From the NCBI GenBank assembly GCA_963664875.1, contig OY761611.1, forward strand, positions 3,168,001-3,232,000: a DNA stretch of 64,000 bases, written 5' to 3'. A program made the position numbers and the translations under genes. The DNA comes from Candidatus Kapaibacterium sp. Its GTDB lineage: Bacteria > Bacteroidota > Ignavibacteria > Kapaibacteriales > UBA2268. The notes beneath the pieces are model-generated. The model made no database searches, was not told the origin of the DNA, and was given only the letters and a program-made list of their open reading frames with translations. Of the stretch, positions 7,188-56,049 are shown piece after piece (positions within the stretch are counted from its first letter, which is position 1; the number at the start of each line of letters is the position of its first letter).

Positions 7188-7477
7188 GAGGCTGTCTCAT
7201 AAGTAGAAAAAAGTGATTTAAACAAGAACGACTACCCCGCCCTTTCAGGGCACCCCTTTACTTCGGCAAGCTCAGTACGTCGCTTCCCAAGAAGGGGAAT
7301 ATAATGCGTTTTTAATTCTTTTAACTACTTTAAATAAAAGCAGTTAAAAATTCCCCTCTTGAGCGATGTGCTGAGCGAGCACAGCGAGTCGAAGTAGGGT
7401 GGCATGCGTAGCATGACGGGGTGGAATAATACCACAGTATGATTTTGTACCCAATTTTTGACTTGTGAGACAGCCTC
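7188..7477. mobile_element. MITE-like element A (290 bp) with 17-bp terminal inverted repeats; interior made of REP-like palindromes
   Basis: Left end GAGGCTGTCTCATAAGT (7188-7204) and right end ACTTGTGAGACAGCCTC (7461-7477), 16/17 inverted match; the same ends recur at 50941 and 55597/55757. Confidence 0.8.
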
Positions 7478-27986: not shown

Positions 27987-28375
27987 GTGTAATCACATTT
28001 TTTTCTGACCTGTAAGTATTTCGTCCTGATTTATAATTAGAACTCAAAAATACCTGTCCCGTCATTTATTTGTTAAAAATAATACTATTCGTAAATCTAA
28101 ACAAACTTACTTTTGGAACCATTGAACAAGGGAAAGGTTGCTGAGCTGAGAGTTTATGCCGAGCAGAGTCGAGGCAAAGCATAACCCCTTGCCAAGGAAC
28201 AAGATAACTACATAAATTGGTTTTCAAATGACATTTTCCATCTAACTAATTGCAAGAAAGTGGTTGTTAGAATGAAAGACAACGATATGAAGAAAATTTT
28301 TATTATTTAAACCATATTGTGTTTATTAGTTAAACGTTGCAGTCGAATAATAGAGGTCAGTATGAATATATTTTC

Positions 28376-44790: not shown

Positions 44791-44978
44791 ACCAGCGCAC
44801 CGCCTACATCGGCAAAGAACTTGACCGAGAAAGCGAACTGGGCGTCCACGGCGTGCGTAAAGTAGATTACGCACTGGGCAGGTTTACTACGATAGATCCA
44901 CTGTGGGAGAAGTACTACGCGTGGTCTCCGTACCAGTATAGTATGAATAATCCTATTAGCTTTTTGGATGAGAATGGA
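44791..44978 (+). repeat. Rhs core direct repeat, copy 2
   Basis: Same length and register as 42209-42396. Confidence 0.9.
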
Positions 44979-50445: not shown

Positions 50446-50865
50446 GAATGAACTTTAACCGCTCACGTAATATATTACATTTCGCAATTCAATAGCTATT
50501 CTTCAAAATTAAGTCCCAAATCCTTGAATATTTTTTATTATAAAATATTTTTGAGTTTAATTAGCTTTTATTTTAACGTTTAAAATTGAAAAAAACACAG
50601 TATCTTAGCACAAACTCTCGTTTGATATTTGTTACTCAATCTCTTTTAATTAAAGGGTTTGCAGCAATTTTAATATCAAACTCGATTTATTAGCTCAGTT
50701 TTATAAGCCAAATCTCGTTCTTTGATTTAACCCTGATTTGTCATTAGAATAATAGCAAATTCAATATAACTTCCTATTTATAAGTGAATTATCACATTAA
50801 AAAGACAATCGAATTAGTAAGATTTCCTTGCCATTGTTAGGGAAGTTTTTAATCATAAGGGGTCA

Positions 50866-50933
50866 ACTACACTTCGGCAGGCTCAGTGCATCGCCCCGCC
50901 CTTCGGGCACCCATTCTTCCCAAGAAGGGGAAT
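50866..50933. repeat. ACCCCGCC...AAGGGGAAT palindromic repeat interrupted by a 24-nt hairpin module
   Basis: Aligns with 7231-7300 once the module (50871-50894 here, 7260-7283 there) is removed. Confidence 0.75.
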
Positions 50934-50940
50934 GAAAATT

Positions 50941-51204
50941 GGGGCTGTCTCATAAGTACCCTCTATATTTTTTTAGACTTATTTCGTGCGAAAAATATTA
51001 ATACAATAGGAGGCTGAAAGCCTCAAATATATTAGCCCGGGGCAACGCCCCGGGAAAGATAAGTCATTGAAATATAGAGCCCTGTAAGGGCGACCAGCTT
51101 GAGACGCAATCATTGCGTCTCTACATTTTGCTTAACTCAGATCACATACTGTATTGAGTAATCGTCAAGATAATATAGATTGTTTTGATTTATGAGACAG
51201 CCTC
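50941..51204. mobile_element. MITE-like element B (264 bp)
   Basis: GGGGCTGTCTCATAA...TTATGAGACAGCCTC ends; interior nearly identical to 55757-56049. Confidence 0.85.
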
Positions 51205-55596: not shown

Positions 55597-56049
55597 GAGG
55601 CTGTCTCATAAGTACCCTCTATATTTTATTAGACTTATTTCGTGCGAAAAATATTAATACAATAGGAGGCTGAAAGCCTCAAATATATTAGCCCGGGGCA
55701 ACGCCCCGGGAAAGATAAGTCATTGTAATATAGAGCCCTGTAAGGGCGACAAGCTTGGAGCTGTCTCATAAGTATCCTCTATATTTTATTAGACTTATTT
55801 CGTGCGAAAAATATTAATACAATAGGAGGCTGAAAGCCTCAAATATATTAGCCCGGGGCAACGCCCCGGGAAAGATAAGTCATTGAAATATAGAGCCCTG
55901 TAAGGGCGACCAGCTTGAGACGCTAAAGGTCACTGAGCGAGTGAAACGAGCCGAAGTGTGAGTCTCAACATTTTGCTTAACTCAGATCACATACTGTATT
56001 GAGTAATCGTCAAGATAATATAGATTGTTTTGATTTATGAGACAGCCTC
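55597..56049. mobile_element. MITE-like element C: 160-bp partial copy (55597-55756) in tandem with a full copy (55757-56049) that carries an extra hairpin insert
   Basis: Two left ends 160 bp apart and one right end; sequence matches 50941-51204 except for an insert at 55924-55958. Confidence 0.85.

Follow-up and report, generated by a model that had tools for sequence, protein, structure and literature searches.

The genome of a Candidatus Kapaibacterium species contains a discrete, gene-less unit of DNA that occurs within nine or more unrelated kinds of repeat, where its limits are sharp and constant and the target is not duplicated. The unit occurs in a short form of 24 nt and a long form of 33 nt, and both forms are best explained as the cognate repeat of P0001, a nuclease of the Ssn kind that belongs to the GIY-YIG family and is encoded in the same genome. 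We regard this assignment as probable by a modest measure, and present below the copies of the unit and their empty counterparts, the anatomy of the repeat family, the linkage of the motif to the nuclease gene, and the alternatives.

Copies of the unit and the repeats that carry them

The window, i.e. the whole stretch of 64,000 nt that was analyzed, is part of a single 3.83-Mb contig (36% G+C), and an Rfam scan of the window at gathering thresholds returned no match. Searching it with the pattern CTTCGRC-N2-11-GCTCAG resulted in four matches against an expectation of zero. The original prediction described two 24-mers at 7260-7283 and 50871-50894 that are identical at 21 of 24 positions and that interrupt the same host repeat at two points without duplication. 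The positions and the identity were reproduced by pairwise comparison (3 of 24 bases differ), none of 100 shuffled windows matched the 24-mer, and the double interruption without duplication is borne out by an uninterrupted copy of the host at genome positions 1696877-1696943. This host, repeat B, reads ACTAC-CCCGCCCTTCGGGCACCCCTT-CTTCCCAAGAAGGGGAAT and has two insertion points for the module that are 22 nt apart. In the copy at 7231-7300 on the plus strand (ACTACCCCGCCCTTTCAGGGCACCCCTT...CTTCCCAAGAAGGGGAAT including the module; -12.5 kcal/mol, z -2.8), the short 24-nt module TACTTCGGCAAGCTCAGTACGTCG occupies site 2, CCCCTT^CTTCCC, where the caret marks the insertion point; the empty hairpin around this site reads CCCCTT^CTTCCCAAGAAGGGG. 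The empty paralogue at genome 1696900-1696943 places this plus-strand insert at 7259-7282, one base to the left of its predicted limits. The second copy of host B, at 50864-50933 on the plus strand, has site 1 filled and site 2 empty. Here the short module ACTTCGGCAGGCTCAGTGCATCGC follows CAACTAC at 50871-50894 (plus strand), with boundaries that are uncertain by one base, and the empty paralogue at genome 1696874-1696933 is 90% identical and gap-free.

The predicted long forms also proved to be real, with limits of 7364-7396 (not 7363-7395) and 55926-55958 (not 55931-55958). The former, the 33-nt sequence TACTTCGACTCGCTGTGCTCGCTCAGCACATCG on the minus strand, lies at CCACCC^CTCAAGAGGGG in a copy of host repeat A that spans 7350-7427 on the minus strand (TTCCACCCCG-hairpin-CCACCC...CTCAAGAGGGGAAT including the long module), and six empty paralogues were identified for it, such as genome 2358853-2358901 at 100% identity. 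With its insertion point marked, host A reads TTCCACCCCG-hairpin-CCACCC^CTCAAGAGGGGAA. It is present in 39 copies genome-wide, both empty and filled, and because it separates ordinary genes, such as the tandem genes that encode secreted proteins, it is REP-like and not the end of an insertion sequence. The latter long module, of the TGACCTT-tail type (CACTTCGGCTCGTTTCACTCGCTCAGTGACCTT, minus strand), is inside a 36-nt stretch at 55924-55959 that occupies the place of the 7-nt loop in GAGACGC-AATCATT-GCGTCTC. Replacement of this loop, which is intact at 51101-51121 in a sister element, had been predicted and is confirmed. For the related fragments predicted at 28127-28191, kinship was not established: the plus-strand segment at 28124-28194 offers only CTGAGC...GAGTCGAGG, a possible degenerate relative that is not separable from shuffled sequences by its fold (z -0.91).

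Several of these repeats are held by larger MITE-like elements. The 290-bp element at 7188-7477, which has GAGGCTGTCTCAYAAGT as terminal inverted repeats and holds hosts A and B, folds as one long hairpin in which its two inverted modules are paired (-69 kcal/mol, z -9.9). It represents a third element family that shares the terminal repeats of a 264-bp element, whose 'empty' form with the intact hairpin GAGACGCAATCATTGCGTCTC is located at 50941-51204 and whose 'filled' form is the 293-bp sister copy at 55757-56049; a further filled copy is found at genome 3319012-3319304.

Some additional features of these elements were observed. At least three internally unrelated element families of 190-310 bp have GAGGCTGTCTCAYAAGT as their common terminal inverted repeat, and about 25 more copies with these ends exist genome-wide beyond the three in the window. 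In many of the copies the two outer flanks are AATCATTGAA and CCAATAAACA, and this constant, asymmetric arrangement is suggestive of a fixed target or of a longer unit. A search for a parent insertion sequence of the GAGGCTGTCTCAYAAGT-ended elements found none, and no target duplication was seen at them. In a sequencing run (X22), a 1052-nt contig follows the window to 7149 and then continues with at least 255 letters of unlike sequence, and the region with the 290-bp element may differ between strains. Elsewhere in the window, the stretch 44874-44933 is an 'empty' relative of another host repeat, as it aligns (with four gaps) to the flanks of the module copies at genome 3442609 when the module is removed.

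Genome-wide census of filled and empty sites

A scripted count of CTTCGRC-N2-14-GCTCAG across the genome resulted in 62 copies, and a second count of the strict motif gave 61, against 0 for a reversed-pattern control. The unit is laid out as (T/C)A-CTTCGRC-spacer-GCTCAG with a tail of 7 nt after it (CACATCG, TGACCTT, TGAGCTT, or TAACCTT). Among the 62 copies, spacers of 2, 3, 11, and 13 nt occur in 20, 8, 33, and 1 copies, respectively; because the spacers differ, the short form cannot have come from the long form by a simple deletion. No replication-strand bias was detected among these copies (30 leading vs 32 lagging), and their left flanks differ (caccc, caac, cccctt, catt, cccg, and others) with no tetranucleotide in common.

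Empty sites were then defined by taking the unit out of each copy and requiring at least 12 nt of alignment on each side of the junction. With this criterion, BLAST identified a paralogous empty site for 37 of the 62 copies, and the unit is thus a partner in consistent filled and empty pairs and not a fixed part of one larger repeat. The empty paralogue was gap-free for 19 copies, corresponding to 14 distinct empty sites, which represent few independent events because most come from one host family. At 13 of these 14 sites the insertion point is in or beside a predicted stem, usually at CCC^CTC-AAGA-GGGG or CCCCTT^CTT-CCC-AAGAAGGGG, and in both well-defined host types it is located 3 nt before the loop. 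Targeting of palindromes by the unit, as originally proposed, may be read from these 13 sites, most of which belong to a single host family. Host A comprises six inner-hairpin subtypes, each known empty and filled and always at CCACCC^CTCAAG, of which three hold the short unit and three the long unit. In addition to host A and the two sites of host B, modules are found in two terminal-repeat element families and at least four other repeat families. With filled and empty paralogues spread over these contexts, the unit is discrete, and it carries no gene of its own, as had been anticipated.

The filled and empty pairs described here are paralogous, within one genome, and the differences between them are therefore compatible with insertion and with precise loss alike. 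When the window segment 5600-9000 was compared with four genomes of the same genus, the genes were found to be about 70% identical and the flanking genes were unlinked, i.e. there is no synteny. Contigs from public sequencing runs end at repeats. One run contig joins 7363 to 7397 and skips the 33 nt at 7364-7396; with 20 letters on the short side of the joint and a run that contains 0.17 of the words, this joint most likely represents an empty paralogue or the copy of a different strain and was given no weight. Among 40 relatives, strict-motif counts range from 0 to 176.

A conserved loop in a covarying stem

When considered alone, the 24-nt unit (z +1.35 and +0.73) folds no better than shuffled sequences, and only weak folding is seen for the 33-nt form (z -1.6 and -0.69). 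Across the family, the conserved part of the hairpin is a loop of 15-16 nt, CTTCGRC-N2-3-GCTCAG, and the stem is variable and about 4 bp in length. In a sample of 124 distinct short-type copies from 45 of the motif-flanked nuclease loci described below, the flanks of the core are paired in 93% of cases at positions -1/+1, 94% at -2/+2, 76% at -3/+3, and 65% at -4/+4, with four pair types at each of these positions, whereas shifted controls were 0-46% paired. The family repeat is a hairpin with a conserved loop and a covarying stem. In the Kapaibacterium genome and its genus, about 2 bp of the stem are left (T..A or C..G), and it is because of this reduction that the 24-nt unit alone does not fold. 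In this genus with its shrunken stem, pairing is supplied instead by a nearby second, inverted copy. The term hairpin module, as originally applied, is appropriate for the family loop with its closing stem or for paired inverted copies, and not for the 24-nt unit by itself.

The motif flanks genes for small GIY-YIG nucleases

P0001, a small stand-alone GIY-YIG nuclease of 98 amino acids, is encoded by genome positions 2363817-2364110, and the window follows this gene at a distance of about 804 kb. The sole Pfam match of the protein is PF01541 (E 1.7e-16, residues 3-75), and the nearest solved structures are those of the UPF0213 proteins 1zg2 (E 1.7e-13) and 1ywl. PF01541 has three matches in the genome, of which P0001 is the only small stand-alone frame. 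The largest module cluster of the genome, at 2363072-2364481, encloses this gene with an array of nine long modules, five before and four after it, most of which form doublets with a diverged inverted partner about 25 nt downstream.

The same arrangement was found in other genomes. Close homologues of P0001 (E<=1e-30) are encoded in seven of 40 relatives as well as in the source genome, and in all eight genomes the motif is present within 1.5 kb of the gene, with 1 to 15 strict matches: 8 in G000, 12 in G001, 15 in G002, 11 in G003, 12 and 14 at the two gene copies of G004, 13 in G036, and one each in G034 and G010. At 11 loci that encode distant GIY-YIG homologues, no motif was found. A profile built from the close homologues retrieved at least 582 relatives among species genomes, and the best 80 loci were inspected. 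In 47 of these 80, a total of 185 strict matches were located within 2.5 kb, vs 0 reversed-pattern matches. The motif-flanked loci belong to Bacteroidota, Ignavibacteriales, Lentimicrobiaceae, and Anaerolineae, with single records from Cloacimonadota, Electrothrix, Sulfurovum, Fibrobacter, and others, and typically have one copy just upstream of the gene and an inverted copy just downstream. In G029, inverted module pairs are 60-90 nt apart. The original prediction had assigned the movement of the unit to an enzyme encoded elsewhere and had named the GIY-YIG nuclease SsnA and HUH (RAYT) transposases as enzymes that act on single-stranded hairpin repeats. A GIY-YIG candidate is supported, as P0001 lies within module arrays and the motif recurs beside nuclease genes of this type in related genomes and in several phyla; an HUH candidate is not, as different hairpins flank the Y1_Tnp genes.

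At the level of whole genomes the association is looser. In a sample of 301 genomes from the phylum, tallied by hand and with cut-offs picked after the data had been seen, 38 genomes encode a strong homologue (E<=1e-25), and 15 of these have at least 20 motif matches vs 15 of 263 others; the compared genomes are related, and such counts overstate independence. Among the 15 motif-rich genomes that do not encode a strong homologue, six have a weaker GIY-YIG match and nine have no match at E<=1e-15. One motif-rich genome with no GIY-YIG match at that threshold contains 218 motif matches, and G012 contains 160 with no GIY-YIG match at E<=1e-5. Conversely, several genomes that encode a strong homologue have few motif matches. 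The link between the motif and the nuclease is strong at the level of the locus, moderate at the level of the genome, and not exclusive.

Relation to Ssn nucleases and to other known repeats

The pairing of gene and repeat that characterizes Ssn was first described in 2025 by Chenal et al. (PMC11893778). Ssn are single-domain GIY-YIG proteins of about 94 amino acids (CDD cd10448), and their genes lie between hairpin repeats that are known as NTS in Neisseria and more generally as SRM. The enzymes bind the single-stranded DNA of the flanking repeat and cleave next to it, and only one of the two strands is cut (PMC11893778). In the part of the paper available to us, the authors liken the arrangement of gene and repeat to an insertion sequence and leave open how the repeat spread, and the modulation of transformation is the only role demonstrated in vivo (PMC11893778).

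P0001 resembles Ssn in that it has a single GIY-YIG domain and a similar length (98 amino acids, compared with about 94-95 for Ssn), in that the repeat is present on both sides of the gene and dispersed in the genome, and in that the copy number of the repeat is highly variable between relatives. A GIY-YIG protein of 96 amino acids in G128, flanked by canonical NTS, also shares 38% identity with P0001 (E 6e-14). The repeats themselves differ: the loop is conserved and the stem variable in the repeat described here, whereas conservation in NTS lies in the stem and in a box upstream of it. Moreover, repeat units that are nested in other repeats and have empty counterparts are not described in the accessible portion of the Ssn/SRM account (PMC11893778). 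The SRM string HGTCWYN(0-2)YYVSBRHN(0-5)WNVSBRGN(0-2)RNCYNB, which is a search aid and no definition, overlaps none of the 62 module copies and is not enriched in the genome, with 5 matches vs 6-9 in five shuffles. The Kapaibacterium genome contains no canonical NTS when up to 3 mismatches are allowed; 68 of the 301 phylum genomes do, with 0 reversed-pattern matches.

According to Supplementary Data 4 of the Ssn paper, a cd10448 homologue is present in each of seven named species with P0001-type genes, and in three of these species at the stricter score, but the gene meant may be another one (PMC11893778). In the same source, SRM enrichment in these seven species is only 0.6-1.7-fold (PMC11893778). 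The strings CTTCGAC and GTCGAAG were not found in the text supplements of that paper (PMC11893778), and six motif strings of 14-15 nt had no occurrence in the literature searched. Judged from sequence comparison and from the published material available, the module appears to belong, as cognate repeat, to a sister subfamily of Ssn, and its motif falls outside the published search string. As a separate observation, some of the NTS copies in the phylum equal the exact consensus, and this 28-nt repeat is strikingly conserved across phyla.

Likenesses to other repeats were also noted. REP/REPIN-RAYT systems and BIME mosaics likewise consist of short intergenic palindromes, inverted doublets, and mosaic clusters, and in REP/REPIN-RAYT systems a single-copy enzyme gene is located between its own repeats (PMC3116915, PMC11893778). 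They differ from the present case in their enzyme, which is a Y1 HUH protein and not a GIY-YIG nuclease, and the RAYT genes of the Kapaibacterium genome have their own distinct repeats. The dRS3/NIME repeats of Neisseria are similarly short, intergenic, and mixed with other repeat blocks, and about half of the dRS3 copies are NTS (PMC11893778). Unlike the unit described here, they are not reported, in the portion of the sources at hand, to form filled and empty pairs of a 24-nt unit within other repeats.

Possible routes of spread

Starting from the assignment of the unit to P0001, we infer that it is spread by the nuclease. The enzyme would recognize the loop in single-stranded DNA and would nick at the loop or at host hairpins that resemble it. 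The nick could then be repaired by template switching or by short-patch copying from another module-bearing repeat, with the result that the unit is placed in exposed hairpins or removed from them, and the unit would be a gene-less passenger of the nuclease cassette. For Ssn enzymes, the cleavage of single-stranded DNA is the only known reaction. The insertion step in this scheme is without precedent because, to our knowledge, GIY-YIG enzymes do not join strands, and we know of no chemistry by which they could insert DNA. The more far-reaching claim that a single-domain GIY-YIG nuclease drives a new route of DNA movement, in which units of 24-33 nt enter the 5' arm of other hairpins with base precision and without duplication, is one that we consider unlikely; if true, these units would be among the smallest mobile DNA proposed.

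A rather unlikely account, which nevertheless deserves weight, is that the unit is a building block of a mosaic repeat of the BIME or NIME type that is shuffled by slippage, microhomology recombination, and gene conversion. The nuclease would then only recognize the motif, for example as a site for restricting incoming single-stranded DNA as proposed in Neisseria, without spreading it. The occurrence of modules in either order and in tandem is consistent with such shuffling, as is the restriction of our comparisons to paralogues, and in the sister species G001 and G004, 21 of 24 strict matches in the fetched host-B-like stretches are host B filled at site 2, as expected of a fixed composite. 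That transformation is the sole process in which an in vivo role of Ssn has been demonstrated, according to the portion of the report at hand, also fits recognition without spread (PMC11893778). Shuffling accounts less readily for the constancy of the unit, which has the same limits in at least nine unrelated contexts and is found at the identical base in six host A subtypes that share just 6 and 13 nt of flank, and the span of 0 to 176 copies among related genomes looks like bursts of spread.

Two further accounts invoke known mobile or dispersed repeats. Elements of the IS200/IS605 type typically insert without target duplication and 3' of a fixed tetra- or pentanucleotide. At the sites of the unit there is no duplication and the left flanks differ, and the unit might be moved by a Y1 HUH enzyme (RAYT or IS200-type TnpA) that acts on single-stranded hairpins. 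The genome does contain four Y1_Tnp matches, and the host repeats are REP-like, with hairpins that also occur beside RAYT-like genes. No strict module is located within 900 nt of any of the four genes; the fourth is preceded, at a distance of about 400 nt, by one degenerate look-alike with 2 mismatches. The hairpins that flank these genes are different ones, namely the set GAGGCTGAAAGCCTC / AGCCCrkGGCAACGCCmyGGG / GAGCCCTGwAAGGGCG, or GCCGCAAGCTAAAGCATGCGG. Furthermore, Y1_Tnp matches are found in the motif-free genomes G006, G011, and G033 and are missing or weak in the motif-rich genomes G032 and G007, and the left flanks of the modules have no tetranucleotide in common. We judge the involvement of such an enzyme very unlikely. 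The cyanobacterial small dispersed repeats SDR4, SDR5, and SDR6 of Nostocaceae, reportedly described by Elhai et al. in 2008, are said to be units of 21-27 nt nested at varying points in other repeats. By this description, a unit of about 24 nt nested at variable points of other repeats is alike in behavior, and SDR5 has been called a short mobile element (PMC5861425). The host genome here is from a different phylum and is not cyanobacterial (for one of its proteins, the named records closest to it are a Chlorobiota MAG and an unclassified MAG), the SDRs have no known linked enzyme, and according to the part of the source available they are not found outside Nostocaceae (PMC5861425); Nostoc punctiforme is also tabulated without an Ssn homologue (PMC11893778). 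With the two sets told apart by description rather than by comparison of their sequences, we consider it extremely improbable that the unit is one of these repeats.

If the unit is the cognate repeat of P0001, it adds a second widespread class of motif outside the published SRM string, and in Bacteroidota, Ignavibacteria-like lineages, and other phyla the system is probably more common than surveys that use this string indicate. The conserved loop within the hairpin points to loop-specific recognition, and loop-specific single-strand nucleases of a new type could serve as tools. The 2025 paper on Ssn left open, in its available part, both the multiplication of the repeat and the role of the system outside Neisseria (PMC11893778). 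The sharp filled and empty sites within one genome make nuclease-driven spread of the repeat directly testable.

Additional observations at RAYT-like and nuclease loci

The RAYT-like genes at genome 3453009-3453347 and 3603757-3604095 are flanked by the three-hairpin set of GAGGCTGAAAGCCTC, which also makes up the central part of the window's 264-bp element (51005-51095) and is present in about four tandem copies upstream of one RAYT-like gene. At the P0001 locus, the near-palindrome TGTTTCATGTGGAACA occurs in five copies within the array (genome 2362930-2364560), one of them about 20 nt before the start codon of P0001, and may be an operator or a further repeat. In G010, the locus L045 (contig C42, 1-2799, minus strand) encodes a close GIY-YIG homologue in frame within a helicase/restriction-like ORF of at least 933 amino acids. 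This homologue is flanked by module-encoded peptide repeats, STSSPTAEDIEENSY and VPELVDS...PELVEG, and the locus looks like an in-frame insertion of a whole nuclease cassette. The ORFs of four distant small GIY-YIG paralogues in G010 and G021 (L053, L056, L047, and L057) end in ...DSSLRSE followed by the stop codon, and these genes thus run into a repeat with a core that resembles the module loop.
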